Shown: one piece after another, positions 1,180-45,596 of the stretch
Layout: each line of letters begins with the position of its first letter
Position numbering within the stretch: the first letter of the stretch is position 1
Source of the DNA: a virus
Lineage: Duplodnaviria; Heunggongvirae; Uroviricota; Caudoviricetes
Virus record (IMG/VR): IMGVR_UViG_2778261121_000003
Location: 1 to 45,596 of that record
Reading direction: 5' to 3' (one strand)
DNA length: 45,596 nt
Translations under genes and position numbers: made by a program
The notes under the pieces: model-generated
Seen by the model: the letters and a program-made list of their open reading frames with translations, nothing else
The model's database searches: none
Told to the model about the DNA's origin: nothing

Positions 1180-1181
1180 AA

Positions 1182-9683: not shown

Positions 9684-9691
9684 TAAGTAAC
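9681..9691 (+). promoter_or_regulatory. conserved intergenic motif (TGATAAGTAAC)
   Basis: Motif-family member overlapping the portal stop codon, 14 bp upstream of the scaffold gene start. Confidence 0.3.
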
Positions 9692-9704
9692 AAAAGGAAT
9701 TTTT

Positions 9705-10592
9705 ATGAATCTGTGGCAAATGCTTTTGGCCAGTCGTGGTCTGATGGGTGTCGCTGAAGCGCATGAGCGTGGAGGCGCTGGCGGTGTAGCTGCTGATAAT
9801 GAGCAGAGTACACAAGATCCTGACAAACAGGGTGAACAAAAAGAGCAGCCGAAGGGTGATGACGAATACGCTGGCATGACTCATGAAGAGTTACTGGCCG
9901 AACTTCGTAAAACCAAGAAAGCTGGTGCTGAACTGCTGAAAGAGAACATGAAGCGCAAAGAGAAAGAGCGCACATTGGCCGATCAGCTTGCTCAGTACGG
10001 TGATATCGACCCGGCGCGTGCTCGCCAGCTTTTAGAAGCTGAACAGGCCGCAGAAAATGCACGTCGTGAGGCGGAGCAAGCTGAACTGGAGCGTCGTGGT
10101 GAGTTCGATGCTGTTAAAAAACAGATGATCGAAGCACACCAGGCAGAGCTGGCACAGCGTGACGAACGTTATACAGCACTGGAAAGTGAAAACGCATCAC
10201 TGAAATCTCAATTAGTCGAGATGACCGTGGGCGCTTCCTTCAGTAACTCTCTCTTCCTACGTGACAAAGTTCTGATGACTCCGGCAAAAGCCCGCGTGAT
10301 CTACGGTTCTCATTTTGAAGTGGGTGAAGACGGTAGCGTAGTGGGTTATGACAAACCGGCAGGTCATAAAGAACGAGCTGTTCTGGTTGACGGTGAAGGT
10401 AAGCCGTTGCCGTTTGAATCCGCGATTGAACGCATTGTGCGGGCAGATCCGGAAGCTGACGCATTGATGCGTAGCGAAGCCAAGCAGGGTGTAGGCTCAC
10501 ATTCCAAATCGACCTACACAATATCCCAACCGAAGAACAAGTCGACTATGGATAAGTTGGCCTCCGGTCTGGGGAAAATTGGACTTAAGTAA
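9705..10592 (+). CDS. putative scaffolding protein
   Basis: 295 aa, highly charged and Ala/Glu/Gln-rich (coiled-coil-like), located between portal and capsid genes. Confidence 0.55.
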   Translation: MNLWQMLLASRGLMGVAEAHERGGAGGVAADNEQSTQDPDKQGEQKEQPKGDDEYAGMTHEELLAELRKTKKAGAELLKENMKRKEKERTLADQLAQYGDIDPARARQLLEAEQAAENARREAEQAELERRGEFDAVKKQMIEAHQAELAQRDERYTALESENASLKSQLVEMTVGASFSNSLFLRDKVLMTPAKARVIYGSHFEVGEDGSVVGYDKPAGHKERAVLVDGEGKPLPFESAIERIVRADPEADALMRSEAKQGVGSHSKSTYTISQPKNKSTMDKLASGLGKIGLK

Positions 10593-10617
10593 CATCTAAA
10601 TCAAAGGGAATTGATAG

Positions 10618-11496
10618 ATGCCATTACTGCGTGAAGAAGCTGAAAAGCTGTCTAACAACGAACTTGAACAGGGTGTGATCGAAACTATCATCGATCGCGA
10701 TGACCTGTTTGCCATCCTGCCTTTTATGAAAATTAATTCAAAGGCATATCTGTACAACCGTGAAAAAACGCTGAGCGAAGCTACTTTCATTGATGTGAAC
10801 GACACCATCACCGAAGGTGCAGCAACCTTCGAAGAGAAAGTTGCGAAGCTGCGCATTCTGGCTGGCGACGTTGACGTCGACAAATTCCTGGCTACCACTA
10901 TGGCTGATACCAACAACCAGCTGGCTATCCAGGTTCGTCAGAAAGTCAAAGGTCTGGCTCGTGCCTTCCGTCGCAATCTGATTGTTGGCGACTCCACCAC
11001 TAACAACAAAGCCTTCGACGGTATTCCGAAGCTGATGCATGACGATCAGAAGATCGACATCTCCGGCGCATCCATGACTTTCTCTATGTTCGACGAACTG
11101 ATCGACGCAGTTAAAGATCTGGGCGCAGACTGCATCATGATGCGTTCTGAGCATCTTCGCGCATATCGTGCGCTGCTGCGAACTGTAAACGTAGGCCCGT
11201 CCGAAATCATGATGGAAAACTTCGGTCGACCAATGCTGTGCCATAACGGCGTTCCGTTTATCGTAAACGACTTCATTCCGGTTGTGGACTCCACCAAAGC
11301 GGATATCTACTGTCTGCACCTTTCTGAAGAGAACGGCGTTACTGGTCTGTATGGCGGCGACAACGCAGGTATCGTTGTTGAAAACATTGGTACTGTACAG
11401 AACAAAGACGCAGTACGTACCCGTGTGAAGTGGTACTGCTCTCTGGCGAATAAGCACGATAAGGCTATCGCTGCACTGACCAATGTAAAAATTTAA
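10618..11496 (+). CDS. major capsid protein (putative)
   Basis: 292-aa ORF after the scaffold gene and followed by a strong intrinsic terminator; positional inference. Confidence 0.6.
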   Translation: MPLLREEAEKLSNNELEQGVIETIIDRDDLFAILPFMKINSKAYLYNREKTLSEATFIDVNDTITEGAATFEEKVAKLRILAGDVDVDKFLATTMADTNNQLAIQVRQKVKGLARAFRRNLIVGDSTTNNKAFDGIPKLMHDDQKIDISGASMTFSMFDELIDAVKDLGADCIMMRSEHLRAYRALLRTVNVGPSEIMMENFGRPMLCHNGVPFIVNDFIPVVDSTKADIYCLHLSEENGVTGLYGGDNAGIVVENIGTVQNKDAVRTRVKWYCSLANKHDKAIAALTNVKI

Positions 11497-11505
11497 TCAG
11501 TGTGG

Positions 11506-11523
11506 TAGATAGGTAATTATCTA
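11506..11523 (+). promoter_or_regulatory. conserved intergenic motif variant (TAGATAGGTAATTATCTA)
   Basis: Palindromic variant of the motif family, immediately upstream of the terminator hairpin. Confidence 0.3.
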
Positions 11524-11530
11524 TGTTAAA

Positions 11531-11557
11531 GGGTGGGCTATACGCCCACCCTTTTTG
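11531..11557 (+). terminator. rho-independent terminator
   Basis: GGGTGGGC-tatac-GCCCACCC hairpin followed by TTTTT. Confidence 0.7.
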
Positions 11558-11569
11558 TAGGAGCGAGAA

Positions 11570-12490
11570 ATGCCAGAACAAAAGATGAAGATTACGGAAG
11601 AGGCATTTTCGGATTTTACGGGGCATATGTGCCGTGCCGGATTTACCAATTCTATCTCCAACGAACCTTTAACCGATCGACAGCAGAGTCAGCTATCTGC
11701 TTGTTTACAGGCGATTCCTTTCTTCCAAACCGTAAATATCACCCCGGTATCGCCGTCAATTATGGTTGGGGAAACGGTTCAATTAAGTGCAGGTATCACA
11801 ATGAGCAAGAGTGTTAGTTCGTTTACTTGGGAATCAGACAATGATCGAATTGCAACAGTAAACGACAGTGGGCTGGTGACAGGTGTGAATCCAGGGAAAG
11901 TAAATATTACTGCCACCGATCGGGAAACCCAGCTTTCAGCATCAGTGGAAGTTACGGTGAACCCAATTGCCGTTCAATCCGTAACTTTAACGCCGAACTC
12001 AACGAGTGTTGAGAAGGGTAATACGGTCAATCTGACAGCAAATATTCAACCGTCTAATGCGACTAATAAGGCAGTTACATGGACTTCCAAAAATGAGGAC
12101 AAGGCAACGGTAGACCAGAGTGGAAACGTTACTGGTGTTGAGGTTGGGACTGCCATAATCGAGGTTACTACAGAAGATGGCGGCAAAAAGGCAACCGCAA
12201 CGGTGGAAGTAACATCGCCTGTTGTGTCTGTTACTGGTGTCGAGATTGAACCAAGCAGCACGACAGTTGAAGAAAACAGCACTGTTCAGTTGACCGCAAA
12301 TGTAGAACCGGCAGGAGCCACAAATAAAACCGTTACTTGGGAATCCAAAAATACCGAGTTTGCAACGGTGGACAGCGAAACCGGTGTTGTAACTGGTGTT
12401 GCGGCTGGCACTGCCACAATCGAGGTTACTACCCAAGATGGTAGCCACAAAGCGACAGCTACTGTAGAAGTTACTGCCGCACAGGAATAA
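11570..12490 (+). CDS. Ig-like (BIG2-type) repeat protein, possible head decoration/surface protein
   Basis: 306 aa with three tandem ~85-aa repeats (pattern V..V.L.P....V..G.TV.LTA...P..ATNK.VTW.S.....ATVD..G.VTGV..GTA.I.VTT.DG...A...V.V); SD AGGAG. Confidence 0.75.
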   Translation: MPEQKMKITEEAFSDFTGHMCRAGFTNSISNEPLTDRQQSQLSACLQAIPFFQTVNITPVSPSIMVGETVQLSAGITMSKSVSSFTWESDNDRIATVNDSGLVTGVNPGKVNITATDRETQLSASVEVTVNPIAVQSVTLTPNSTSVEKGNTVNLTANIQPSNATNKAVTWTSKNEDKATVDQSGNVTGVEVGTAIIEVTTEDGGKKATATVEVTSPVVSVTGVEIEPSSTTVEENSTVQLTANVEPAGATNKTVTWESKNTEFATVDSETGVVTGVAAGTATIEVTTQDGSHKATATVEVTAAQE

Positions 12491-12495
12491 TCAAT

Positions 12496-12519
12496 ATTGG
12501 GCGGCTTTCGCCGCCCAAT
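12496..12519 (+). terminator. strong hairpin (terminator-like, no T-tract)
   Basis: ATTGGGCGGC-tttc-GCCGCCCAAT, 10-bp perfect stem directly after the stop of the Ig-like protein gene. Confidence 0.4.
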
Positions 12520-12535
12520 ATAGAGAGAAAGCGTT

Positions 12536-12970
12536 ATGAAACCAGCAAAAATTGTTTTATTAGAACCGCAATTTTCCGGTTATTCGGGAGTACTGTGTGG
12601 CGTTCAGTTCGAGAACGGGGTGTCCGTATCTGAGTTGCCTTTTATCGATCAGCAGAGGATTTGTGCCTCAATGCGAGCGTCAACAGTAGAGGGCAAAAAT
12701 GTTTCTCCGTCAGCCGCATACAGTGACCGTGGTGAATTGACAGTAGACATGATCACCGAGCCAGCAGCGCCTGACATTGTGCCAATGAAACGTGGGACGC
12801 CAGATGAACCGGCCAAACAGATCCAGACTTTCACACGAGAAGAGTTGGAGTCAATTGCAGACAATGAAGGCATTGCTGGTCTACGTGTGATTGGTAATCA
12901 GGTGGGTGTTAAAGCGAAAGGAATCGTCGAGATGATTGAAGGCATCCTGAAAGCACAAGGCGGTGATTAA
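12536..12970 (+). CDS. hypothetical virion-module protein
   Basis: 144-aa ORF inside the head/tail morphogenesis block. Confidence 0.55.
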   Translation: MKPAKIVLLEPQFSGYSGVLCGVQFENGVSVSELPFIDQQRICASMRASTVEGKNVSPSAAYSDRGELTVDMITEPAAPDIVPMKRGTPDEPAKQIQTFTREELESIADNEGIAGLRVIGNQVGVKAKGIVEMIEGILKAQGGD

Positions 12971-13803
12971 TGGCGCAGATCGACTCGTATCGTAGCGGTG
13001 AAGCTGTTTCTCTTTCATTTGCCTTCAACGTGCTGGATATCGAATCAGCTACCTACACAGTAAAGGACAGCACCGGGGCTATTCTCGTTGATGGTGAGTC
13101 GCTAGAAATTACCAGCGGGCAAATGTCGATTCCGGTTGTAGTGTCGGCTAAATATAATCGACTCTCTGAGAAAGAACGCGATCTGCGATACGTCATTGTG
13201 AAGGCTGTTGCATCAGGACTGACGCATGAAGAGCGACAAATGTATGTTCTGCTAAATAGTTTTGAACTGTCGATACCAGAACAGTCGTTTGCAACTGTCG
13301 CTGATGCTCAAATGCAGGCGATCGATATGCTGAATGGGGACACTTTGCTGTCGGATGGTGAAGGTTTAATGCGCAAGCGTCTCATTGAGGCTACCAGACG
13401 AATTAAAACTTTACCGTTCTCAATCCGCAAAATTCTACGTATCGACTTTGACCGATACGATCGTCCTCAAAATATGCTGAATGTGTATGACATTCCGTGG
13501 GGAGCAGATGGAGCATACCGGCATGATTTAGTTGATTGGGAAAAGATGACGCAGGAGAAGTTTGAAGAGTTCCCTGACTACTTCAAAGAAGCGTTGATGC
13601 TCGCCGTTGTCAACGAAGCGTGTGAGATCGCAAATGGCAATGATGTAGCCGCAGCACGAGAGGATGGCATTTTGTCAGAGTCCATCGGTGAAACAACCAA
13701 CATGTACCGTACCGGTAAAGCTGCAAACGTGCATGTGGCTCGCAGTACCTGGCGCTTGCTGGTCAGTTACATCAACAACCGTATGATTGTTCGCCGTGCG
13801 TAA
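12970..13803 (+). CDS. hypothetical head-tail joining/completion protein
   Basis: 277-aa ORF; start overlaps the upstream stop (TAATG); position between head and tail genes. Confidence 0.55.
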   Translation: MAQIDSYRSGEAVSLSFAFNVLDIESATYTVKDSTGAILVDGESLEITSGQMSIPVVVSAKYNRLSEKERDLRYVIVKAVASGLTHEERQMYVLLNSFELSIPEQSFATVADAQMQAIDMLNGDTLLSDGEGLMRKRLIEATRRIKTLPFSIRKILRIDFDRYDRPQNMLNVYDIPWGADGAYRHDLVDWEKMTQEKFEEFPDYFKEALMLAVVNEACEIANGNDVAAAREDGILSESIGETTNMYRTGKAANVHVARSTWRLLVSYINNRMIVRRA

Positions 13804-13882
13804 CGCCAGTCGCATTATTTACTTTTGGTCTAAAGGGTTTTTGGCCAGTAATGAGAGCGACCGACAACAACAGGGAGAGAGC

Positions 13883-14227
13883 ATGAATATTTCATGGCAA
13901 ACAGAAATTGCGATCTACCGCTTTGGCGCAAAGAACGTTTACGGTGAGGCGCAATTACAATTCGTCAGGAAGACGAATGTCGGCGTGGTTAAGTTCGAAC
14001 AGAGTAATGAGAAATCGTCAGTTCGTGCTGATAGCTCTGGTAGTCGTGGTAAGGCGAGTCTGGAGCTGTTTGATGCTGTGTTAGTTGTCCCTTTAGAAGC
14101 GGCTGTACAACTTGATGATGTGCTGATCCTTGAAGGTCAAAAATTAAAGGTGTCCAGTGTTCATCGCCGCTGGGGGCTACGAGGAAGACCTGGTCATCTT
14201 GAAGTGGGGGCGAATATATGGGTCTGA
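13883..14227 (+). CDS. hypothetical head-tail adaptor protein
   Basis: Preferred start ATG 13883 (MNISWQ...) with GGGAGAG SD; in-frame with track ORF 13787..14227. Confidence 0.5.
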   Translation: MNISWQTEIAIYRFGAKNVYGEAQLQFVRKTNVGVVKFEQSNEKSSVRADSSGSRGKASLELFDAVLVVPLEAAVQLDDVLILEGQKLKVSSVHRRWGLRGRPGHLEVGANIWV

Positions 14228-14691
14228 AATACGATGCGCATCAGTTCAAACGTGCGGGGAATAGACTCAATAACAGCCAGAAAGCATTTAAGCGATATCT
14301 TATTCGGGACATGGAAAAGCTGGCGCGTTTGGTTGAGCGTCTCAGCCGTGCAATGGCCCCGCTGGAAACCGGCTCTCTGGAGACAGCCATCTTTGCCAGG
14401 GTGATTAAAGAAGGTTATTCAGGGCTGCGCATTGAGCTTTCTGTGTCTGGAGCAAAACCACGTCAGGGGCATCCGGGCGTAGAAGTCGGTGACTATGCTA
14501 AGTACATGGAGCTGGGTAAATACCGACTCGGTTATCTTTCTCGAATGAAGAACGTGACAAACCCACCAATTGCCGGTGTTAAACCTCGTGTTGGGCCACA
14601 CTTTCTGGAAAGAGCGGTGGAAATTAGCGAGAAGCAGTTCTCAGAAGCGATTCTTGAGGCTGCCAGAAAAGCAGGTTTTACGAGAGGTTAA
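14218..14691 (+). CDS. hypothetical head-tail/tail-completion protein
   Basis: 157-aa ORF overlapping its neighbours. Confidence 0.55.
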   Translation: MGLKYDAHQFKRAGNRLNNSQKAFKRYLIRDMEKLARLVERLSRAMAPLETGSLETAIFARVIKEGYSGLRIELSVSGAKPRQGHPGVEVGDYAKYMELGKYRLGYLSRMKNVTNPPIAGVKPRVGPHFLERAVEISEKQFSEAILEAARKAGFTRG

Positions 14692-14692
14692 T

Positions 14693-15076
14693 GTGTTTAT
14701 TGAAGCGTTTGCAAGTTTGATGCAGAAGGCAAAGATTGGCATGGTCGGGACTGACATTTTCTGTCACTACTTGCCTGCCAATGTGAAATCTGGCGTCCTG
14801 CTTATTAACCCAAATACCGGTATCAGCATCGATCATGAGCTACAGGGCTTTTACCACGAATCATTCACAATAATTGTGCGTGGTTCGTCAATTACTACGA
14901 CGGTTGAGAAAGCCAATAAAATCATTGAGATGTTTCCAGTAGAGGAAACGGAATCTGGTGGTGTTTATTTTCGACTGGTACGACCGATGGCGATGCCAAT
15001 CATTTATCCCAAAAATGATGGAGCATTAATAGAAGCAGGCATTCCTGTTGAATTTGCTGGCTATTTATTGAATTAA
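14693..15076 (+). CDS. hypothetical tail terminator/completion protein
   Basis: Preferred GTG start at 14693 right after the upstream stop, with GAGAGG SD; in-frame with track ORF 14570..15076. Confidence 0.45.
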   Translation: MFIEAFASLMQKAKIGMVGTDIFCHYLPANVKSGVLLINPNTGISIDHELQGFYHESFTIIVRGSSITTTVEKANKIIEMFPVEETESGGVYFRLVRPMAMPIIYPKNDGALIEAGIPVEFAGYLLN

Positions 15077-15083
15077 GTTAATC

Positions 15084-15103
15084 GGTAAGTATATACTTAC
15101 TAT
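15084..15103 (+). promoter_or_regulatory. conserved intergenic motif (GGTAAGTATATACTTACTAT); possible sigma70-like promoter
   Basis: Motif-family member; upstream TTGAAT (15068-15073) and TATACT about 18 bp later resemble -35/-10 elements; 48 bp upstream of the major tail protein start. Confidence 0.4.
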
Positions 15104-15150
15104 TAGCGCAATGAATGCGTAGAATTAACGGAAAAAGGAGTTTTCCATCA

Positions 15151-15888
15151 ATGTCTAATACCCATGTAAAAAACATCAAACTTGGTGCCTGTAAGGTGTC
15201 GTTTGGTGGTGTGGATTTGGGTTACACCAAAGGTGGTGTTCAGGTTGAAGTGGCGACTGAGACTCTGAAAGTCACCGTAGACCAGCTAGGACAAACAACA
15301 ATATCCGAGTTGGTTCAAGGGCGTAACATCACCATCACTGCGCCTTTAGCAGAATCTGTGCTCAAAAATATGGTCGACTTGATGCCCGGCTCTTCTATGA
15401 GTGAAGAGGGGGATGTGGTGACTATTACATCAGCATATGGCGTAAACCTTATTGATGTGGCAAAAGAGTTAATCCTGACACCTCAGGATGGAACAGACTA
15501 TGTGCTGATTATTCCCAAAGCCGCTACAGCAGGCAACTTCACTATGACCTACCAGTCTGATGATGTTCGAGTGTTCTCTGTAGCTTTCTCTGCATACCCT
15601 GATGATAATGGTGTTCTTGGAAAAATGGCCACGCCTAAGCCTGTTCAAAGTGTAACTATTTCACCAGCATCACCTACTGTAAATGTTGGTGAAACAGTGC
15701 AGTTGAGTGTGGGTTTTACTCCGGCTGAGGCGACTAATAAGACGGGAATTTGGTCATCTGACTCTGAACATGCGAATGTTGATCAGAGAGGTTTAGTTAC
15801 AGGTGTAAGTGAGGGAACTGCAAATGTAACCTTTACGTCTGATGATGGCGCAAAAACGTCTACCGTCTCAGTCACCGTATCTGAATAA
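15151..15888 (+). CDS. major tail protein with C-terminal Ig-like (BIG2) domain
   Basis: Start ATG 15151 with AAGGAG SD; C-terminal ~80 aa match the Ig-like repeat pattern of the 11570 gene; followed by a terminator; position before the G/T chaperone and tape measure (lambda gpV-like architecture). Confidence 0.7.
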   Translation: MSNTHVKNIKLGACKVSFGGVDLGYTKGGVQVEVATETLKVTVDQLGQTTISELVQGRNITITAPLAESVLKNMVDLMPGSSMSEEGDVVTITSAYGVNLIDVAKELILTPQDGTDYVLIIPKAATAGNFTMTYQSDDVRVFSVAFSAYPDDNGVLGKMATPKPVQSVTISPASPTVNVGETVQLSVGFTPAEATNKTGIWSSDSEHANVDQRGLVTGVSEGTANVTFTSDDGAKTSTVSVTVSE

Positions 15889-15902
15889 ATAGAATTAATA
15901 AT

Positions 15903-15927
15903 GAGGCTCAGGATGAGCCTCTCTTTT
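15903..15927 (+). terminator. rho-independent terminator
   Basis: GAGGCTCA-gga-TGAGCCTC hairpin followed by TCTTTT. Confidence 0.65.
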
Positions 15928-15943
15928 AAAAGGATTTAAACCA

Positions 15944-16261
15944 ATGACCAAATTACTCGATCTCGATTCCATTCTGCCTCCGAAGAAAAGCATCAAATTT
16001 GGCGGTCAGGAATATCCCATCGTTGAAATGACGGTAGGTTTGTTCGTTTCCATCAAGCAGATGGAAGGCAAAGATCTCATGAACATGTCTCCTGTTGAGC
16101 AAGTGACAGCTTATGCAGATCTGGTTCGTAAGGTTATCCCTTCAGTACCTAACGAAGTTCTCGAAAAACTGACAGTTCCGCAACTCCAGCAGATCTTCAC
16201 CTTCGCTATGGAAGTGATTGATGAAGAAAACGAAAAAGCGGCTGGCGAAGGGGCAAAGTAA
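15944..16261 (+). CDS. tail assembly chaperone (lambda G-like)
   Basis: 105-aa acidic protein directly upstream of the tape measure gene, with an overlapping -1 frame ORF (G/GT arrangement). Confidence 0.7.
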   Translation: MTKLLDLDSILPPKKSIKFGGQEYPIVEMTVGLFVSIKQMEGKDLMNMSPVEQVTAYADLVRKVIPSVPNEVLEKLTVPQLQQIFTFAMEVIDEENEKAAGEGAK

Positions 16262-16611
16262 TTTCCCGCGATGAATCCGGGACAAGGACCGTTTCAATAG
16301 ATCTCGGATTCTATTTCAGTCGTGTAGTTGCTCACTACGCTGTGTCGCCATTAGAGCTATTGAACATCCCTCTCACGATGTTCTGGATGCTCAGTCGCAA
16401 TATAGACCGTCTGCGTGCGGAAGAGGATGTCCGCAACTTACAAGTCGCTCGTGCGTCCCAGGCGGATGGCGATGCTGTGAAGGCGTTCATGGAGGGTTTG
16501 CAACTCAGGATTGGAAGACCAGTCGTAACAGATAAAGTCTACGATCCAAGCCAGGATAAGGCAGACCCTGACGCCAAAGAGCAACTGATGCAAATATTTG
16601 GCAGAGGATGA
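16225..16611 (+). CDS. tail assembly chaperone frameshift extension (lambda T-like part of a G-T fusion)
   Basis: -1 frame relative to the G-like ORF is open from 16225 (no stop before the track ORF 16342..16611); A-rich slippery tract GAAAAAG at 16232-16238 inside the overlap; ends just inside the tape measure start. Confidence 0.5.
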   Translation, partial: RKRKSGWRRGKVISRDESGTRTVSIDLGFYFSRVVAHYAVSPLELLNIPLTMFWMLSRNIDRLRAEEDVRNLQVARASQADGDAVKAFMEGLQLRIGRPVVTDKVYDPSQDKADPDAKEQLMQIFGRG

Positions 16612-16618
16612 CAAGGGA

Positions 16619-19600
16619 ATGTCACAAAACGTAGAGTTTATCCTGTCGCTGGAAGACAAACAGTTTACAGCGTCAATCGATCGTGCGGGGAAACTGCTTA
16701 CTCGATTTGGTGAGCAGGTAACAAAGCCTGCTCAAAAAATCCAAACCTTTGAACGCTCTTTGGGTTCGGTCGCCCGTATCATTGGCGTTCTGGAAAGCAA
16801 GCTCGATTCTACGGCAGATAAACTACAGGATGTAGCTGCCGGTTTTGAGCTTGCTTCAGATGCTACGCGTAAAATGCGTGGCAACATCACCAGCCTCAAT
16901 TCTGGTCTTAAAGTCCTGATTGAGCGCGTCGATACGACAACTTCTTCAGTAGATAAACTCACCGCGTCATTACGTAAAGTGCAATCAGAGCTAAATGATT
17001 TCTCTGATTGGGCGACCTATGCAAGCAAAAGCGCAAGCCGCTTTGGAACGGAGGTCAAAGAAGCCTCTGCGTCCGTGAGTGGCATGAATACGCGCCTTAA
17101 TACCACGACGAAGCGACTCAGTAATTGGGGTGTCACAACGAGTCAGGCTGCCGAGGGACTGAAAAAGGTTCGTGAGCAGATGGACGAAGTTATCGGACGT
17201 CAGCAACTGATTAGCAAGCCGGTACGCGTTCGTACATCTGTAAGTGGCGATGGTGGTAGCGGGCGGCGTAGCGGCGCTTCTGGCCACAGCGGTAAAAATA
17301 ACGAAGGAGGTATGTTCTCTGGCCTTCGTGGCAACATTTTCCTGCTTGGCGAGATCGGAGATGCAGCCAGAACGGTTACTGACATCATGTTTGGGTGGCA
17401 GAAGCCTATTGTTGAAGCTGCGGCCGAAATGGAACGTATGCGGGTGATGCTTCGAGGGTTGAATAAGGAGAAGTCCAACCCTGGACAGGCTGCCGCCGAT
17501 GATATGAAGTACATCGTGGATATGGCTAAGAGCGCCCCATTTGCGATGGAAGCTCTAACCGATTCGTTCGTTAAATTCCGCTCAGCAGGATTAGATCCAA
17601 CAGATGGCTCTTTAAAGACTCTTGTCGATTCCGTTGCTCGTTTTGGTGGGGATAGCGAACTTCTGAAGCGTGCATCCATTGCTGTTCAGCAGATGTCTGG
17701 TAAGGGTGTTGTATCGATGGAAGAGCTTCGCCAGCAATTAGGTGAGGCGATTCCGACAGCAATGAACGCAATGGCCAAGGCTGCTGGTCTGACAATGGGC
17801 GAGTTAACTAAAGCTGTAGCATCTGGAACGGTAGAAGCCAAAAACGCACTGGCACTTATGTTCAAAGAGTTGAAGATGCAGAACGAGGGGGCTGCGTCCG
17901 AAATGATGAACACTTTTACCGGTACGTTGGCGCAGATGCAGACGGCCTTTACGCTATTTGCGGATAAAGTTGGCCAAGCTGGTTATTTGTCCTCTTTAAA
18001 AGAGGGGATGAAAGAACTTACCTCTTTGATGAATAGCACAGATGGTATGTCTTTTGCTCACTCATTGGGAAGTGGATTGACAACGGCTGTGGATGGCTTG
18101 CGTGATTTGGCAATGTGGCTGATTAAAAATCAAGAACTGGTCATTGCCTTCGGCAAGGTAGTAGCTGCTATGGTGGCCTTTAAGCTACTTAAGGCTGGTA
18201 TTTCTGGAGTTATAGGAACTGCCAGTCAGATGACGTCTGCTTTTGCGAATATGTCTACCACTATACAAGGGACATTTAATCTCGCTTCCACAGCCGTTAA
18301 ACGATTTAATCGGGCAGCGAGCATGGGGCTATCACCTATACCATCTTTAATCTTCGCTATTCGTAATGCGTTCAGTGGATTGGTTGCGTTCATGGCCGCA
18401 AATCCGATAGGTTTTGCTTTTACCGCAGCAGTAACAGCAGTGTCATCGCTGATTTTTTACATGCAGGTACTCAGAGGAAAAATTGAGGATGTCGTAAATA
18501 AAGTCAGAGAGATACCTGAAGCAATGACGGCGGCAGATCGCGCGATGCTGGAGTCTGCAAAGCGAGAGAAAGATCGTCAGATCAGCAAGCTAGAGAAGGA
18601 GGTAACAACAGGTAAACGATCACAGGTTTCAAGAGATGGGCTGGTTTATGAAACAGATGTTGACGTTAACAGCACCAAACAACAACTTGAAAACCTAAAG
18701 AAAGAACGCGATGACATAGCTAAAACACTTGGCGAAGGCATTGAGAAGAGCGTCTATAAAAGCGTCACCAAAGGTTTAGACGATGCAATTGCCGAAGTAA
18801 ACCAGAAGGCAAACGTCTCTTTGGTTGCAAATGCTAAGGAGTTGGAGCAGCTTAACAAGAAGAATGAGGAGATTGCCGGCAGAACTGACCTATCTGATCA
18901 CGAGAAGAGTCAATTAAGAGCCGCGAATAACGCAAAAATCGAGCGTTTATATTCTGAGGCGGATCTTCAAAAACTCAAAGGTTATCAGGATATTCAGAAG
19001 GGTATTCTTAATGATCTTGTTAACTTAAATGAGGATTTTAAAAAGGCTACAACGGCAAATAATACTGAACAGCTCAAAGAAATTCAGGCTCGGATTGATG
19101 CTCAGATAGCTAACAAGAAATCGATAGAAGAGCAGATCGAAAATGTTACGACCAGCCTTAGTGTGAAAGCTGGTAGCGGTCTTAAGTCAATTAATGGCGG
19201 TAAAATTGGTGAGTTTTCAAGCACACCAGTTGATGCTAATTCCAAAACTATGACTGGTTTTTGGAAACAGCAGATGGACTCTAAAAGGTATCAAAGAGTC
19301 AATCTAGATGGTTCCGCATTATACGACTTACAAGGTCAACCTGTTGTTGGGCCTCGACAACTCAAGGAGCAATTAAGACAGAAGAAAATTTACGGTGATG
19401 TGAAATTAGAGCAGTTGTCAGAAAATGACCGCATCGCAGTAATTAAGACTCTGACAAAAGCTCGTGAACTTGATGCTGAAGCAGCGGATAAGGCAGCAAA
19501 CCGTACCGCAAAAGCAGCCGAGAGAGCAGCAAAGAAAGAACAGGCAGCGCAACAGAAACTGGCAGCCGGATACCAGAAGGCTCTGGACAAAGCCGATCAG

Positions 19601-21184
19601 CTTATGGGGCAAATGGGTGAAAGCTCTAAGGCTACGGTATCGTTTGATCAGTCTCTTCGCGATACAACGAAATCGCTAACTGATTTGGCTAATGCGGTTC
19701 CTAACGAGTTCATCACTCAAGAGATGATCGACAAGGCGAAAAAACGTCTTGAAGACCTCAAAAATGCGACACCTGAATATCGCGAGATGTTTAATCGCCG
19801 CAATGTTGAGCAGATGATCTCCACTTGGGCACCGGAGGCGGATTCCATTATTAGTGCTGGCTATACGCCGTCTCGTGAAGAGAAAGTTGCTGATTTCGAA
19901 GACACCTACAACCGCAATCTCAAAGCGTTGATAGAACTTCGTGATAAGGCGTCTGATCCTAAAGTCGTGGCGCTTTATACAAAGAAAATCAATCAACTGA
20001 TTGCTGCTGGCAATACCGCGCTTATTAAAGAGACGGGGACCGCGACGCAGAAGTTGGCACTGGAATACGAAAACCTGGCAGAGCAGATCGAAAGCACCTG
20101 GACTGATTTGTTTAGTGGCTTAACTGATGTCCTGACTGATTTCGTTATTAACGGGAAGATGAGTTTCTCCAGCCTATCTCAGTCCATTTTGAAAGATATC
20201 ACCAATATGGTCGTGAAGTCGCAGATCACGCTGCCTCTAATGAACATGTTGGGGATGGGAACCACCGCAGCTGGTAGTTCACAGAGTGGTAATTTGCTGA
20301 CCGGGGTTGCTTCCGCCGTTGCCAATCAAGGGGTACGAATGGGCAACACTGTTAACGGCGACAAGTCGGTAGGAGAAGCCACGAAGGAGACGTCCAGTTC
20401 GGTAACTGGATTGGGGCAAACAACACAGCAGACCACCAGCGCAATTGGCACAGCAACAAATGCGATTGGTAGCTGGGTATCGGGGCTATTTGATAGCACC
20501 GAAGCCAAAGATGCTGAGACAAAAGCAGTGAAGGATTCCATCTTCTCGATGCAGAACCTCAGCTCTGTTACCGGTGCTCTGTCTGCCGCGTTTGCAATGC
20601 TTGGAGCTAATGCTTCCGGCTCTGGTAATAAGTGGTTGAATTTCGGCGCGACAGTTGCATCTGGGTTGGTTTCAGTATGGGCAGGTGGTGGTTTCGACAG
20701 TGTGACATCAAGCTCTGCTAAAACCGCAACCAGCAGTGTGACATCAAGTTCTGCTAAAACCGCAACTAGCAGTGTGGCTGACGGAACTAAAGGCATTCCT
20801 GCAATCCCGAAGTTTGCAAATGGAGGAATATTCGGAAAAGACGGCGTGATCCCGCTCCGGGCATACCAGAAAGGCGGTATCGCCAACTCACCTCAATTGG
20901 CGTTGTTTGGGGAAGGCGATATGAATGAGGCGTATGTTCCATTGCCTGATGGTCGAACAATCCCTGTAACGCTCAGTACCGATGGTATGAGTGGAGGCGG
21001 AAATGTTCTTTCTCCTGTATCAATTGAGATCAATGTCCATAGTGACGGTAGCACAACTGAATCCGGCGATACAGAAAGCATATGGAACAATGCCGCTCAA
21101 CGGGTGAAAGCCGTCGTACTTGAGACTATCGCTCAAGAAAAACGCCCTGGCGGATCACTCAACCCAAACACTCAACGTAACTAA
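16619..21184 (+). CDS. tail tape measure protein
   Basis: About 1520 aa, long alpha-helical/coiled-coil composition with Gly/Ser-rich C-terminal region; canonical position after G/GT; start could instead be the TTG at 16598. Confidence 0.9.
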   Translation: MSQNVEFILSLEDKQFTASIDRAGKLLTRFGEQVTKPAQKIQTFERSLGSVARIIGVLESKLDSTADKLQDVAAGFELASDATRKMRGNITSLNSGLKVLIERVDTTTSSVDKLTASLRKVQSELNDFSDWATYASKSASRFGTEVKEASASVSGMNTRLNTTTKRLSNWGVTTSQAAEGLKKVREQMDEVIGRQQLISKPVRVRTSVSGDGGSGRRSGASGHSGKNNEGGMFSGLRGNIFLLGEIGDAARTVTDIMFGWQKPIVEAAAEMERMRVMLRGLNKEKSNPGQAAADDMKYIVDMAKSAPFAMEALTDSFVKFRSAGLDPTDGSLKTLVDSVARFGGDSELLKRASIAVQQMSGKGVVSMEELRQQLGEAIPTAMNAMAKAAGLTMGELTKAVASGTVEAKNALALMFKELKMQNEGAASEMMNTFTGTLAQMQTAFTLFADKVGQAGYLSSLKEGMKELTSLMNSTDGMSFAHSLGSGLTTAVDGLRDLAMWLIKNQELVIAFGKVVAAMVAFKLLKAGISGVIGTASQMTSAFANMSTTIQGTFNLASTAVKRFNRAASMGLSPIPSLIFAIRNAFSGLVAFMAANPIGFAFTAAVTAVSSLIFYMQVLRGKIEDVVNKVREIPEAMTAADRAMLESAKREKDRQISKLEKEVTTGKRSQVSRDGLVYETDVDVNSTKQQLENLKKERDDIAKTLGEGIEKSVYKSVTKGLDDAIAEVNQKANVSLVANAKELEQLNKKNEEIAGRTDLSDHEKSQLRAANNAKIERLYSEADLQKLKGYQDIQKGILNDLVNLNEDFKKATTANNTEQLKEIQARIDAQIANKKSIEEQIENVTTSLSVKAGSGLKSINGGKIGEFSSTPVDANSKTMTGFWKQQMDSKRYQRVNLDGSALYDLQGQPVVGPRQLKEQLRQKKIYGDVKLEQLSENDRIAVIKTLTKARELDAEAADKAANRTAKAAERAAKKEQAAQQKLAAGYQKALDKADQLMGQMGESSKATVSFDQSLRDTTKSLTDLANAVPNEFITQEMIDKAKKRLEDLKNATPEYREMFNRRNVEQMISTWAPEADSIISAGYTPSREEKVADFEDTYNRNLKALIELRDKASDPKVVALYTKKINQLIAAGNTALIKETGTATQKLALEYENLAEQIESTWTDLFSGLTDVLTDFVINGKMSFSSLSQSILKDITNMVVKSQITLPLMNMLGMGTTAAGSSQSGNLLTGVASAVANQGVRMGNTVNGDKSVGEATKETSSSVTGLGQTTQQTTSAIGTATNAIGSWVSGLFDSTEAKDAETKAVKDSIFSMQNLSSVTGALSAAFAMLGANASGSGNKWLNFGATVASGLVSVWAGGGFDSVTSSSAKTATSSVTSSSAKTATSSVADGTKGIPAIPKFANGGIFGKDGVIPLRAYQKGGIANSPQLALFGEGDMNEAYVPLPDGRTIPVTLSTDGMSGGGNVLSPVSIEINVHSDGSTTESGDTESIWNNAAQRVKAVVLETIAQEKRPGGSLNPNTQRN

Positions 21185-41107: not shown

Positions 41108-42426
41108 AAAAGTTGATCGCACTTAAGCATAAGCTGGACGAAATGAAAGCTATGGGAACCAATGCAAAAAAAGAGGCATTGGCCAACATGGATGACTTCG
41201 AGCAAAGCATGGTTTCATTGATGCTCAACCCTTTCATCCGTTTTGGGGTAAAGAAATACAAAGTGGCAGAGCCGCTTAGTGAGTCCGTCCCAAGTGACGA
41301 AAAAGCCATTGATATACTGAATAAGCTGGCCTCTCGCGAGCTGACGGGGAACGCAGCAATAGTTGCTGTTGAGTCTATCGTGGCGTCAATGTGCGCCGAT
41401 GGGCAGGACGTCTTCCGTCGTTTCCTCTTAAAAGATCCGAAAGCTGGCGTTGGGATTAGCCTATGCAACAAGGTTTTTGAAAATCCCATTCCGAAATTCG
41501 AGGTGCAGCTGGCGTCACCGTATAAAGAAAAAGGCGACAAATACCCCTTCAAGCCAAATCCTAAAGCAAAATGGCCGATGATTGGCAGCCTTAAGCTCGA
41601 TGGTTTGCGAGTAATTTGCGAGGTTATTGTTGACGAAGAAGAGGTTAACTTCCTTTCTCGTACTGGTAATCCAATCACGTCTCTCGATCACCTAAAGCCA
41701 GCCATGCTCGAATTAGGCAAACTTTCAGGCCACAAACACATCTTCTTCGATGGTGAAGGAACAGCCGGTTCATTTAACCAGTCCGTATCTGCATTGCGCA
41801 AAAAGAACGTGCAGGCAATTGGCGCTATTTATCATGTTTTCGACTTCTTCCTACCGGAATGGCGGGCACAGGCTAAATCCAAAGAGTATGCAAAGACAGG
41901 TATGAAGCTGAAAGAGCGCCTGGCTATGCTCGTGGCGTTGTTCAAAAACGATCGCAGTGAAGACTACGCGCAAGACATTCACCTGCATCCGTTCTACATC
42001 ATCCATAGCCACGAAGACTTCATCGAACGCTTCATGAAACGCCTGGACGATAACGAAGAAGGGGAGATGGGCAAAGATCCGAACTCTGTTTACGAGTTTA
42101 AACGTACCCGCAGCTGGTGGAAGTTAAAAGACGAAGATTCAGAAGATGGTGAAATTATCGACTTTGAGCCGGGCGACCCGGACTCTGGTTTTGCCAACAC
42201 GCTTGGAAAAATTGTTATTCGCCTTGAAAACGGTGTGATTGTTCGTGCGAGCGGCATTAAGCATAAATATCTGGACGAGATCTGGAACAACAAAGAGAAG
42301 TACCGTGGTCGTATTGTTGAGGTTCATTGTCACGAGAAAACACCGGATGGCAGCTTACGCCACCCACGACTGAAATGGCCGCGTTGCTTACGCGATACAG
42401 AAGATCGAATCGGAGATAAAGAATGA
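41104..42426 (+). CDS. ATP-dependent DNA ligase
   Basis: 440 aa; adenylation motif I KLDGLR (IGSLKLDGLRVICEV). Confidence 0.85.
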   Translation: MKKLIALKHKLDEMKAMGTNAKKEALANMDDFEQSMVSLMLNPFIRFGVKKYKVAEPLSESVPSDEKAIDILNKLASRELTGNAAIVAVESIVASMCADGQDVFRRFLLKDPKAGVGISLCNKVFENPIPKFEVQLASPYKEKGDKYPFKPNPKAKWPMIGSLKLDGLRVICEVIVDEEEVNFLSRTGNPITSLDHLKPAMLELGKLSGHKHIFFDGEGTAGSFNQSVSALRKKNVQAIGAIYHVFDFFLPEWRAQAKSKEYAKTGMKLKERLAMLVALFKNDRSEDYAQDIHLHPFYIIHSHEDFIERFMKRLDDNEEGEMGKDPNSVYEFKRTRSWWKLKDEDSEDGEIIDFEPGDPDSGFANTLGKIVIRLENGVIVRASGIKHKYLDEIWNNKEKYRGRIVEVHCHEKTPDGSLRHPRLKWPRCLRDTEDRIGDKE

Positions 42427-42602
42427 TGCTCGGCTGGATGATTGCATTTTTAGCGGTTGGTTTTTTACTCGGTATTGTGGTGATGTCCAGTTGCATCAAT
42501 GACTATATTAAAAGCGGTGTTATAGAACGACGCGGTCGTATTTATCGCATTGTAGAAATAACCCACACAGTGAAGGAGATTAAGGATGATCGTATTAAGT
42601 AA
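42423..42602 (+). CDS. small single-pass membrane protein (paralog family member 1)
   Basis: 59-aa ORF not in the track; start overlaps the ligase stop (ATGA); N-terminal TM (WMIAFLAVGFLLGIVVM) then basic tail RGRIYRIVEITHTVKE. Confidence 0.45.
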   Translation: MMLGWMIAFLAVGFLLGIVVMSSCINDYIKSGVIERRGRIYRIVEITHTVKEIKDDRIK

Positions 42603-42801
42603 GCGGGAGAAGGAAACGCTTCATGAAATCAGTAAGTGGCCGGAGTTCCCTGAGTACTGGAAGCCTAAAACGCGGGCTAAGTTAGAGCGTTTAGGGTTGG
42701 TTGCAAACGTTTCTGAAACGTGGTGCTCGGCCAACTACCAGTTAACTGATAAAGGGAAAGTATTGCTACAGCAATTAGTAGAATCAGGAGTGTTAAAATG
42801 A
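42586..42801 (+). CDS. hypothetical small protein
   Basis: 71-aa ORF overlapping its neighbours; no recognisable motifs. Confidence 0.5.
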   Translation: MIVLSKREKETLHEISKWPEFPEYWKPKTRAKLERLGLVANVSETWCSANYQLTDKGKVLLQQLVESGVLK

Positions 42802-42950
42802 TTCCATACATCTCATTAGCTTTTATGGGTGGCTTCCTTATCGGCTTCGGCATCTGTCGTGATTTAATTAAGCAGGAACTTAAAACCAAAACACTGTGCA
42901 TCGGAAAGCGCGTGTATCGGGTAGTTCATGAAACAAAGGTTAGAAAATGA
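42798..42950 (+). CDS. small single-pass membrane protein (paralog family member 2)
   Basis: 50-aa ORF not in the track; AGGAG SD; ATGA overlap with the upstream stop; TM (ISLAFMGGFLIGFGI) then GKRVYRVVHETKVRK, similar to the tail of member 1. Confidence 0.45.
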   Translation: MIPYISLAFMGGFLIGFGICRDLIKQELKTKTLCIGKRVYRVVHETKVRK

Positions 42951-43237
42951 GCAATTTAACTTCTTTGGAATGGTGGTTGGCCACCTATTTCTTAGCGGCC
43001 GGAGTCGCATTCGCCTTTTACGTAGGTCAGTTAGTCGTAAAACTGCTGCTGATTAAATTTGCCAGTCATAAACGTATCGATGATGGTCTGTGGCGTCTTG
43101 GCACCCTGGTGGAAACTCGCTACGGGCAACTTAAGGAGAACGAAACCATTACTATCCAAGCGAAACGGTTCACTGCGACCATCACAAGAACACCTAGTCG
43201 TAGAGTGGGCTTGATCAAAAAAGTCACAACCGAATAA
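42947..43237 (+). CDS. membrane protein (possible third paralog)
   Basis: 96 aa; N-terminal TM (WWLATYFLAAGVAFAFYVGQLVV); ATGA overlap with the upstream ORF. Confidence 0.55.
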   Translation: MSNLTSLEWWLATYFLAAGVAFAFYVGQLVVKLLLIKFASHKRIDDGLWRLGTLVETRYGQLKENETITIQAKRFTATITRTPSRRVGLIKKVTTE

Positions 43238-43245
43238 AAACATAT

Positions 43246-43268
43246 CAATAAGTATTTACTTACTTATC
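43246..43268 (+). promoter_or_regulatory. conserved intergenic motif (CAATAAGTATTTACTTACTTATC)
   Basis: Motif-family member at the start of the long noncoding/tRNA region; candidate promoter for that region. Confidence 0.35.
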
Positions 43269-44012
43269 TTTTGTGTATAAGATGACTTTGTTTTCGTTGA
43301 GACGCGACTGTTTGAACTTAAATACAAGTGCAAACGAAGAAGTCTATCTGGCAGTAGCCTAATAAGCCAAACACCAGCGAGGTCAGTTTCCAGCCTCGTT
43401 ACCGAAATGGGACACACTGAGCGAGTGTGATTGCAGAACGCAGGAGGGAACATGAGTGTTCCCTCCGATGAAGTAACGGAATGGGCGGTCGGTATATTTT
43501 CAACTCCATATGACTCTCGGATTCTTAGCCACTGACCGCCCATCCTGTTACGTCATTTTGTTCAATTATGTCGTTTATACTGGGTTAAAAGCGGCGACGT
43601 AGCCCGGCTGGTATGGTTAGCCAGCACACAACGTTGAGGCCATTACATTTTTATCAATTCTAAGGTTCTATTCACAGAGATACCGGCGAGCGTTGATATG
43701 TAACATGTTGGGCAAACATTCAATCGGAGTAGTGGCCTCAACGTTGTGAAGACAGGATTGTTGTGTAGGTTTAACCACTGTTGCCATTGGTGCCTGTTTT
43801 CACAACAAATGATTCCATACATCATATTGTATAAATTACAAAGTAGGTGCTGTCCTCAGAAACATCATCTACTTAAAGATTTAGCCTTCTATTGAGCGAA
43901 GTCGAAAGCGTCTGGCACTAACGTAAAGTGCAAGTAGCAGTGCGTTTCCTGGCAGAAACTAACACCGCCGCGATTGGCACTGTTGAGTAATAAATACTGG
44001 CTGTGCCGAATT

Positions 44013-44087
44013 GATGGTGTAGCTCAGCGGTAGAGCAGTTGGCTGTTAACCAACTGGTCGGTGGTTCGAATCCACCCACCATCGCCA
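44013..44087 (+). tRNA. tRNA-Asn (anticodon GTT)
   Basis: Manual cloverleaf: acceptor GATGGTG/CACCATC, anticodon stem GTTGG/CCAAC with loop CTGTTAA, T-arm GGTGG-TTCGAAT-CCACC, encoded CCA. Confidence 0.8.
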
Positions 44088-44092
44088 ATTTA

Positions 44093-44179
44093 GGGGAGTT
44101 AGTCCGTAGAGGTAGCGGTGTAGACTGTAAATCTACTGTCATGGCGACTCGGGTGGTTCGACTCCATCACTCCCCACCA
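44093..44179 (+). tRNA. tRNA-Tyr (anticodon GTA), long variable arm
   Basis: Manual cloverleaf: acceptor GGGGAGT/ACTCCCC, anticodon stem GTAGA/TCTAC with loop CTGTAAA, long variable arm, T-arm GGTGG-TTCGACT-CCATC, encoded CCA. Confidence 0.75.
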
Positions 44180-44183
44180 AATT

Positions 44184-44259
44184 GCCGGTTTAGCTCAGTT
44201 GGTAGAGCAGTCGCTTTGTAAGCGAATGGCCAGCGGTTCAAGTCCGTTAACCGGCACCA
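44184..44259 (+). tRNA. tRNA-Thr (anticodon TGT)
   Basis: Manual cloverleaf: acceptor GCCGGTT/AACCGGC, D-arm GCTC...GAGC, anticodon loop TTTGTAA, T-arm AGCGG-TTCAAGT-CCGTT, encoded CCA. Confidence 0.75.
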
Positions 44260-44751
44260 ACATAATATTGAGAACATTGGCGTAACGGGGTCATATCCCA
44301 ATCTATGAATAAATGTTGCGTTGCAGCGTGACAACCAGTGTTCTCAACATTGTGGTGAATGCACAGGCTGATGTGCCGCAACTACAGTAGTGCGCGCTTT
44401 GCGGGGCTTGCTACAACCCTGTGTCGGAGATCAGCACCGACCATCACAATTTGGCTCTCTTGCAACAGCATAACGCTGAAATATGTCCAACCTGGTGCGG
44501 CCTGTTCACCCGCCGTTAGCTCCACGAAACGGAGCGCACAACAGGAAAGAGCATTGAGAACCGCCGAGACTGCCCTGTTTGAAGCGTAAGTCCGTGCAAA
44601 CGTCATACAGTGCTCTTTTCGTTGTGGTTGATGCGCAGACTGATGCGCGGAAAGAAATGCCCCAGCGACACACGAGGCGAGTTCACACACTGCATTGCAG
44701 TCAGTAGCCGGGGTCGCTAAGCCGGAGTTCAGTACCGGTAACCACAACAAT

Positions 44752-44838
44752 TGGAGAGTAGGGAGCATGGTGCTCAAGCGGTCTTGAAAACCGTCCCATT
44801 GCGCAAGCGATGATGGTTCGATTCCATTACTCTCCGCC
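44752..44838 (+). tRNA. tRNA-Ser (anticodon TGA), long variable arm
   Basis: Manual cloverleaf: acceptor GGAGAGT/ACTCTCC, anticodon stem GCGGT/ACCGT with loop CTTGAAA, long variable arm, T-arm GATGG-TTCGATT-CCATT, encoded CCA. Confidence 0.75.
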
Positions 44839-44993
44839 AGACACAGCGTTGAGCGGTTTGGCCTTTTAATCACCCAGATTAAGACTCCGCTAACATAAAC
44901 CAGACCGCTCAACGCTGTGATAGACAATTACGTCAGACTTTCTTAACCATAGCTTGATAACATCCTAGCAACACTTTTTTCATCGCAAAATTC

Positions 44994-45016
44994 AAAGGGG
45001 CTTCGGCCCCTTTTTT
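44994..45016. terminator. rho-independent terminator (likely bidirectional)
   Basis: AAA-GGGGC-ttcg-GCCCC-TTTTTT between the tRNA cluster (+) and the 3' end of minus-strand gene 45032..45553. Confidence 0.7.
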
Positions 45017-45031
45017 GTTGAATAGTGCAAT

Positions 45032-45553
45032 TTACTTTGCATAGTCGCTTAGTTTTAATATTTCGCGCTTATATTCCTTAACCATGTCACGAGACTCAAT
45101 GTGAATTCGATGTAAAATTTTATCGTTATCTTTATTCTCATTTATCTTAATGAGTGCTAATTTATATTCATAATCATCAAATGCATCAATCAATTTGCGA
45201 CCGGGAATTGTTTCTTCGTCACTCTTAAAGTATATATCTTCAAGCCTGTAATCTAGTTGATTAGATTTTCTTTTCTCGATGTAATCTACTGCCATAGCTA
45301 TTACATCGTTCCTGTCATTTAACCTGGTTTTTTCGGAAGGCACATCTTCGTAACGTTGTACAATTGAACAACCAATAAGGGATGGGATGTAAACATCAAA
45401 ACAAGTAACTCTATCATGCGCATTTTTAAGTTCTTTCTCAAAGTAGTTTCTAACATGCAAAGGCAACTTATCAAAGTAATCATCAATTATAGGAGAACAA
45501 GGAGTTTTATAATTCATAAGAATTGACGGTACGAGCTTTGGATGTCGGAACAT
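45032..45553 (-). CDS. hypothetical protein (AT-rich accessory gene)
   Basis: 173-aa ORF on the opposite strand to the surrounding genes, visibly AT-rich, AAGGAG upstream of the ATG; no recognisable motifs. Confidence 0.6.
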   Translation of the reverse strand: MFRHPKLVPSILMNYKTPCSPIIDDYFDKLPLHVRNYFEKELKNAHDRVTCFDVYIPSLIGCSIVQRYEDVPSEKTRLNDRNDVIAMAVDYIEKRKSNQLDYRLEDIYFKSDEETIPGRKLIDAFDDYEYKLALIKINENKDNDKILHRIHIESRDMVKEYKREILKLSDYAK

Positions 45554-45596
45554 CCACTCCTTTTGAACACCCGAGGGGAAATAATAACTACGAATG

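Follow-up and report, generated by a model that had tools for sequence, protein, structure and literature searches.

A 45,596-nt stretch of viral DNA (Caudoviricetes; hereafter, the window) closes with an AT-rich open reading frame on the minus strand, beside a group of tRNA genes on the plus strand, and this arrangement raises the question of what the isolated gene encodes and how it came to lie there. The first-pass annotation, made from the sequence alone, described a gene of 173 aa without a recognizable domain, set apart from the tRNAs by a bidirectional terminator, and suggested that it was an acquired accessory gene and a candidate for defence or anti-defence. A minus-strand frame ending at 45032 was indeed found, but its proposed length did not hold. 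The ORF list gives the frame as 45032..45553(-), 173 aa, with an ATG start. When 45032-45595(-) was translated, 14 additional sense codons (IRSYYFPSGVQKEW) were seen ahead of this Met, and no stop codon occurred before the window edge. Up to its final base, the window runs collinear with plasmids of E. albertii and E. coli, in which the gene measures 1263 nt and encodes 420 aa. In E. coli p009_B (WP_101917689.1) and E. albertii p2014C-4015-1 (WP_124781937.1), it is annotated as a "hypothetical protein," occupies the same strand and the syntenic place, and is found between tRNA-Ser and a divergent grxA, which is followed by genes for an integrase and an HTH regulator, and by cobT. The 187-residue fragment encoded in the window showed 98.4% identity to residues 234-420 of WP_124781937.1 and 80-82% protein identity to the E. 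coli alleles, and the family HMM aligned to it at positions 239-426 of 427. The sole library match of the 173-aa sequence, phrog_18168, covered profile positions 236-408 of 408; as judged from these coordinates, the alignment is the C-terminal 40% of a longer protein.

The ATG at 45553 proved to be the Met (Met248) of a conserved W-M-F-R motif that is internal in full-length homologues. Given an internal ATG, an open frame and profiles that continue upstream, the window therefore holds the 3′ 45% of a gene that is cut by its edge. By alignment to the homologues, 45032-45596(-) supplies the final 187 of 420 codons, and the 233 codons before them fall outside the window (Table 1). Neither the start codon nor the membrane hairpin nor the PF16872 region described below is in the window; all three are assigned to this element by way of its 98%-identical relatives and its collinearity with them. 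ORFs that touch a window edge need a check for truncation before they are interpreted, and the present one is a case in point. Among NCBI entries marked as "partial," five clusters of partial copies of this gene were observed (P0001-P0004 and P0014), with 7 to 269 member sequences each; evidently, many assemblies break or open inside this AT-rich gene, as the window does.

Table 1. Positions of the features at and around the truncated gene (window coordinates).
Feature	Position	Strand	Basis
tRNA-Asn, tRNA-Tyr, tRNA-Thr cluster (context, not part of the gene)	44013..44259	+	ARAGORN, Rfam
tRNA-Ser(UGA), conserved left border of the variable slot	44753..44839	+	ARAGORN; same position in relatives
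GC-rich hairpin terminator, common to the tRNA unit (+) and the converging AbiC-like gene (-)	44994..45013	.	Terminator scan, folding
Stop codon TAA	45032..45034	-	ORF list, translation
3′ part of the 1263-nt gene (codons ~234-420 plus stop; variable C-terminal domain)	45032..45596	-	Open frame, homologue identity, family HMM
Internal ATG, Met248, mistaken for a start	45551..45553	-	W-M-F-R motif inside homologues; AAGGAG coding, unconserved

Two other readings of the gene itself were weighed. That of a complete 173-aa gene, starting at ATG 45553 behind its own ribosome-binding site, is what a mechanical ORF finder lists, and an AAGGAG hexamer does lie 3 nt upstream of the ATG. Even so, no in-frame stop codon is present upstream within the window, all alleles conserve the upstream codons at the protein level, and both the PHROG and the family profiles continue through them. 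In addition, the Shine-Dalgarno-like hexamer encodes Lys-Glu and is not kept in the E. coli allele, which reads AAAAGGGACTGGATG instead. We regard a complete 173-aa gene as almost certainly wrong. It is also very improbable that the locus is a decaying remnant or pseudogene, as might be supposed from its very AT-rich sequence, from the many database copies labelled "partial" and from one plasmid copy that was split into six BLAST pieces. Intact 420-codon frames exist in many independent plasmids, the terminator is conserved, and the dN/dS ratio was 0.37 for the part in the window (window allele vs. E. coli alleles) and 0.09-0.12 over codons 1-100. Purifying selection acts on the gene and is more relaxed toward the C-terminus.

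The element that carries the gene was identified from its two halves. Positions 1-20000 of the window are 93-96% identical to Escherichia phages CMS-2020a, PhiR41_1, and Cyrano, and positions 25000-45596 match numerous plasmids of E. coli, 108-112 kb in size, at ~95%; over 20 kb, the identity is 95-96% for CMS-2020a, PhiR41_1, and many of the plasmids. The 45.6 kb of the window are part of an SSU5-like phage-plasmid from Escherichia with a full size of ~108-112 kb. We also considered whether it might be a complete circular phage genome, in which the gene would continue an operon from the window start, and rejected this since the relatives are ~108 kb and the window is an internal slice.

The annotation's claim that the gene is strongly AT-rich was borne out. 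Its GC content is 0.331 over 45032-45553 and 0.340 over 45032-45596 against a mean of 0.464 for the window (33-34% vs. 46%), and only 0.3% of 565-nt segments of the window are as GC-poor, the remaining ones lying at the opposite edge. There, positions 1-700 are equally AT-rich (GC 0.34-0.38), and two minus-strand ORFs of unknown function, 269-868 (phrog_13473) and 901-1179 (phrog_1466), lie downstream of a helicase gene (1182-2741); positions 1-1179 may be a second low-GC accessory block.

Four tRNAs (Asn, Tyr, Thr, and Ser) were located by ARAGORN and Rfam at 44013-44839 on the plus strand, and an Rfam scan of 42400-45596 returned these four and nothing else. The hairpin at 44994-45013 lies 18 nt past the stop codon, is invariant in the three alleles compared, and folds both ways (plus strand, -15.4 kcal/mol, z -2.9; minus strand, -20.6 kcal/mol, z -4.6). 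A simple terminator scan scored it on the plus strand only. Because its minus-strand tail (UUUGAAUUUU) is T-rich, the "bidirectional" function ascribed to it at first reading is plausible, with folding on both strands established and termination scored on one. A sigma-70 promoter scan upstream of the full gene in a relative found no convincing or consensus minus-strand site.

Several other features of this region were recorded. A 7-bp hairpin (TGGATGTCGGAACATCCA) with a T-rich tail, at 45539-45556, was scored as terminator-like on the plus strand; it falls within the coding region on the antisense strand, exactly at the internal ATG, is also present in the E. albertii relative p2014C-4015-1, and has three substitutions in the E. 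coli allele. This hairpin is probably incidental. The ~490 nt between tRNA-Thr and tRNA-Ser (44260-44752) contain no convincing gene and are variable among relatives, with split or partial matches in most plasmids; phage Cyrano has its Asn, Thr, and Ser tRNAs within ~250 nt and has no tRNA-Tyr. No convincing ORF was found in the ~750 nt 5′ of the tRNA cluster (43256-44012). The only signal there was a tmRNA-like match at 43311-43413, which at 17 bits (E 0.013) is far under the gathering score and is probably due to chance.

The distribution of the gene was determined among related elements. Using the full-length protein in a tblastn search of PLSDB, we found the family in 138 plasmids, of which 119 are non-mobilizable and which are mostly 105-115 kb; by comparison, ~1013 plasmids share the tRNA region and ~1394 share the flanking backbone. 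The family is thus present in about 10-14% of related plasmids. Among complete E. coli genomes, the allele group was found in 40, always plasmid-borne, and the tRNA region in 773. No match was obtained by tblastn, with either the fragment or the full-length protein as query, in 50,697 phage records, SSU5, Cyrano, PhiR41_1, and CMS-2020a among them. Rather than being conserved in all relatives with a known function, the gene is confined to a minority of related elements.

What replaces it elsewhere was seen from the slot that it occupies. The flanks of the slot are conserved, with tRNA-Ser on one side and the grxA/phoH-integrase genes on the other, and the occupants differ among relatives. In other plasmids of E. 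coli, Klebsiella, and Enterobacter, the slot holds alleles of 398-408 aa that are matched by the family HMM (E 1e-128 to 1e-160) and are about 20-40% identical to this allele; across the divergent alleles of the slot, lengths of 398-420 aa were seen, with an identity of 20-23% in the C-terminal part. In Cyrano it holds an unrelated 116-aa gene, and in PhiR41_1 other genes. Different occupants between conserved flanks indicate that the slot is a variable cargo position, and the gene is an accessory one in the cargo slot of an SSU5-like phage-plasmid. In the literature searched we found no description of the SSU5-like slot as a hotspot, and a handful of its occupants were inspected here. The allele closest to that of the window (98%) is found in E. 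albertii plasmids of just 62-64 kb. The backbone is closest to the E. coli elements of ~108-112 kb, and those nearest in backbone carry an allele that is 80-82% identical in protein. This mismatch between allele and backbone suggests recombinational exchange of the slot between backbones.

In order to place the protein in a family, single sequences and profiles were both used. The 173-aa fragment had no match in Pfam, and the closest full-length homologues, searched singly against Pfam, NCBIfam, and PADLOC, gave noise only (e.g., ATP-synt_I over the transmembrane region, E 0.27; PtuB over the stalk helix, E 9e-4). No match to PF16872 was obtained, even at E<=10, for the 98%-identical E. albertii homologue (L002), the full-length homologue L001, or P0005, whose numbering is used below; likewise, neither the AbiC (PDLC02343) nor the AbiP (PDLC02351) model of PADLOC matched the window fragment, L001, L002, or P0005. 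The PF16872 model has 80 positions and a gathering threshold of 22 bits, and it matches residues ~128-212; since this region is upstream of the window, the window fragment cannot contain the domain. The absence of a recognizable domain noted earlier is therefore true of single-sequence searches, whereas profile searches link the protein to PF16872.

In a large protein collection the family is small: E. coli alleles share 78-88% identity, and further members 51%, 34%, and 30%. A profile of this close family retrieved PF16872 proteins at E 5e-42 to 5e-24, and the match at 5e-42 is named "putative phage abortive infection protein." An exhaustive HMM search of 1.84 billion representatives gave 276 cluster representatives at E<=0.001. 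PF16872 was matched by 87 of 109 distant relatives (best, 4.8e-17), PADLOC AbiP by 10, and PADLOC AbiC by nine. Four relatives (P0018, P0021, P0022, and P0023) scored 26-36 bits against PF16872 and the E. coli member P0012 exactly 22.0 bits. One member of a 16-sequence alignment of the family matched PADLOC AbiP at E 0.002. When the phage-plasmid clade was aligned to the PF16872-positive clade by hhalign, the two matched over 409 columns (probability 100%, E 2.7e-43), and the homology is therefore full-length, including the C-terminal part in the window. The remote homology search proposed with the annotation thus led to the AbiC/AbiP (PF16872) superfamily, of which the protein is best described, on these profiles, as a deeply divergent member lying below curated single-sequence thresholds. 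We hold it nearly certain that the locus is, taken as one statement, a truncated gene for a 420-aa protein of the AbiC/AbiP superfamily. The "Abi_C" of the literature is the unrelated C-terminal HEPN domain of AbiJ (PMC13590631) and was set aside. A search of PDB sequences with the family profile gave a chance match only (E 0.49).

The divergence of the clade was examined at nine near-invariant core residues of the superfamily (P0005 numbering: H83, Y122, R124, K131, Y150, R155, S156, N169, and H196). The phage-plasmid clade keeps only H83, Y122, and Y150. R124 is replaced conservatively by K, and the other five, on which 100-108 of 109 relatives agree, are substituted (K131E, R155I, S156F, N169F, and H196D). 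The same columns were seen in the 16-sequence family alignment. It is because these core residues are replaced that the Pfam model fails on this clade. Judging from the residues lost, the biochemical activity may differ from that of the rest of the superfamily.

The architecture of the protein was predicted from full-length homologues. A Kyte-Doolittle scan gave a clear first transmembrane helix (residues 1-24, or ~2-17 for the helix proper; mean of a 17-residue window up to 2.88) and a marginal second one (~26-41; 1.61 for the window from residue 26), and the sequence after the second helix is rich in K and R. In an AF2 model of the full-length protein (pLDDT 81, pTM 0.68), residues 2-22 and 24-95 form helices, 106-238 a helical bundle, and 254-414 a C-terminal domain with three short strands; the second membrane helix continues into a helix of ~70 residues. 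The window fragment, modelled separately, was equally confident (pLDDT 81). A structure search had also been proposed, and no informative structural neighbour was returned for either the full-length or the fragment model. The protein is predicted to consist of a two-TM hairpin, a strongly conserved juxtamembrane motif (ATAWxAxEARKSAKAA), a long stalk helix, a helical core (PF16872), and a C-terminal domain of low conservation that makes up the portion seen in the window. The K/R-rich sequence after the TM helices suggests that the bulk of the protein is cytoplasmic; by the hydropathy scan and the AF2 model, this would be ~375 of 420 residues. Conservation falls along its length: identity to distant members is 33-52% for residues 1-100 (hairpin, ATAWxAxEARKSAKAA motif, and stalk), 17-38% for the core (101-233), and 8-23% for the C-terminal part in the window (234-420; all in P0005 numbering).

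The genomic neighbourhoods of distant relatives were also inspected. In Citrobacter, P0018 (L013, 5001-6347) is situated between the tail-fibre assembly and tail-sheath genes of a P2-like prophage, and a gene with a TIR domain (CAP12-PCTIR_TIR) adjoins it at the edge of the locus. This position between tail-fibre assembly and sheath genes is the Z/fun position of P2. Z/fun has been named as a defence locus (PMC13586616). P0023 lies beside an integrase and has SMEK_N, RelA_SpoT, and HEPN-RES genes as neighbours, and P0012 is found among IS elements on IncF-like plasmids of E. coli (L004-L007; gene 6001-7299 of contig L004). On these four contigs, P0012 is always ~550 nt downstream of a gene for a 115-aa DUF6404 protein that is absent from the SSU5-like and P2-like contexts; this gene could be a partner in the P0012 sub-branch. 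We found no partner gene that accompanies the family from one context to the next (SSU5-like, IncF-like, P2-like, and island), which fits a single-gene system.

The best-studied counterparts are from lactococci. AbiC has two TM helices and lowers production of the major capsid protein. AbiP is anchored by a single TM helix and binds RNA more readily than ssDNA; its activity depends on the anchor as well as on nucleic-acid binding, and it keeps early transcripts from being switched off, blocks replication, and is triggered or escaped via the major tail protein, to which escape mutants map (PMC13064643). Like lactococcal AbiC (pTN20; also called Prf; PF16872 putAbiC; PADLOC PDLC02343), the present protein is specified by a single gene on a mobile element, has a predicted two-TM N-terminal anchor and a helical soluble domain, and can be joined to it by profile homology through PF16872-positive intermediates. 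It differs from AbiC in that its closest full-length homologues fall below the PF16872 and PADLOC AbiC thresholds, in that the phage-plasmid clade has an extra variable C-terminal domain (the sole part in the window) and is substituted at several near-invariant core residues, and in its host (Enterobacteriaceae) and carrier (a phage-plasmid). The likeness to AbiP (PADLOC PDLC02351; grouped as "AbiC/P") lies in a membrane anchor and a cytoplasmic helical domain, and in the AbiP model being matched by 10 of the 109 distant relatives of the family; however, AbiP has a single TM helix where two are predicted here (PMC13064643), and the present protein gives no direct sequence match to it. AbiP nevertheless provides a working model, in which a structural protein of the phage is the trigger, nucleic acid is bound, and the early-to-late switch fails. 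Models of lactococcal AbiC and AbiP are likewise without an informative structural neighbour (PMC13064643). The slot itself resembles the P2 old/tin and Z/fun and the P4 psu-int hotspots in being fixed between conserved genes (tRNA-Ser and grxA/phoH) and in having occupants that are interchangeable, low in GC, and unrelated between elements; divergent alleles of one family also occur in it, and the site of P0018 in its P2-like prophage is a further likeness to the P2 hotspots.

Taken as a whole, the low GC content, the presence in a minority of relatives, the variable slot, and the profile homology to AbiC/AbiP uphold the idea of an acquired accessory gene that is a defence candidate, while nothing pointed toward anti-defence. 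The gene is a plausible anti-phage candidate by homology, and not a new kind of system, and its product is best read as a single-gene, membrane-anchored protein that would act in abortive infection or exclusion. We favour, with moderate confidence, an abortive-infection function of the AbiC/AbiP type, and have much less confidence in any specific biochemical step. The gene is a unit of its own, opposite in strand to the tRNA and replication genes and with its own terminator, and would be expressed from its own promoter by the resident prophage-plasmid. The product is predicted to have an inner-membrane anchor and to lie mostly in the cytoplasm, where the variable C-terminal domain might recognize a component of a superinfecting phage, as its pattern of variability and the triggering of AbiP by a phage structural protein suggest. 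Once activated, the protein would, by homology, stop phage development at the membrane-cytoplasm interface. If AbiP-like, it could do so by binding nucleic acid, abolishing the early-to-late transcription switch, and blocking replication; if AbiC-like, by reducing the synthesis of capsid protein. The conserved membrane hairpin may itself contribute to the arrest.

Two other functions were weighed against an abortive-infection role. The protein might instead exclude superinfecting phages, as a membrane barrier of the prophage-plasmid that blocks DNA entry or an early membrane step without suicide or nucleic-acid targeting. Prophage Sie proteins are typically small membrane proteins, and the carrier here is a temperate element; in addition, the phage-plasmid clade has lost several of the superfamily's polar core residues, and conservation is highest in the hairpin and juxtamembrane motif (33-52% to distant members vs. 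8-23% for the C-terminal part). We nevertheless consider exclusion unlikely, in view of the full-length homology to AbiC/AbiP-type proteins found by hhalign, the ~375 of 420 residues predicted to be cytoplasmic, and the fact that AbiC and AbiP act after DNA entry, on replication, the transcription switch, and capsid synthesis (PMC13064643). An accessory function other than anti-phage, be it in anti-defence, as a membrane protein for host fitness or lysogenic conversion, or as a factor in the element's own cycle, seems quite unlikely. It would agree with the fact that the protein itself matches no defence HMM, and with DefenseFinder screens of SSU5-like elements that mention no AbiC-type system (bioRxiv 10.1101/2025.09.12.675607), but the profile links to AbiC, AbiP, and PF16872 are strong, and no anti-defence family was matched. 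Also against it are the distant relatives that occupy a P2-like prophage cargo position and a toxin/defence-like neighbourhood, and the patchy presence and allelic replacement in one slot, which are typical of defence cargo.

A further proposal, which we put forward as rather doubtful, is that the enterobacterial phage-plasmid clade is more than a divergent copy and could be a functionally distinct AbiC/AbiP offshoot that combines a membrane-acting effector with a polymorphic phage-sensing domain. It was considered because the hairpin and juxtamembrane motif are constrained, the polar core is mostly lost, and the C-terminal domain is fast-evolving. Alleles of this domain replace one another at a single locus in Escherichia, Klebsiella, Enterobacter, and Salmonella. 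If the proposal were true, the protein would be a single-protein sensor-effector that current defence finders miss and that is directly tractable in E. coli.

Single-protein AbiC/AbiP systems, and cargo slots in temperate elements, are already known. What is new here, and modestly so, is an enterobacterial phage-plasmid clade that escapes Pfam and PADLOC, has lost core residues, and undergoes allelic replacement at one locus. SSU5-like phage-plasmids are widespread in clinical Enterobacteriaceae, and about one in 10 of them probably has a defence gene that goes unflagged in standard PADLOC/Pfam screens. The mechanism of AbiC and AbiP has been open since the 1990s, and structure prediction has been unhelpful (PMC13064643). 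With an E. coli homologue on a common phage-plasmid, a natural allelic series that varies mainly in the C-terminal domain, and variation in the core residues, this family offers a tractable system for asking what AbiC/AbiP proteins sense and how phages are stopped.
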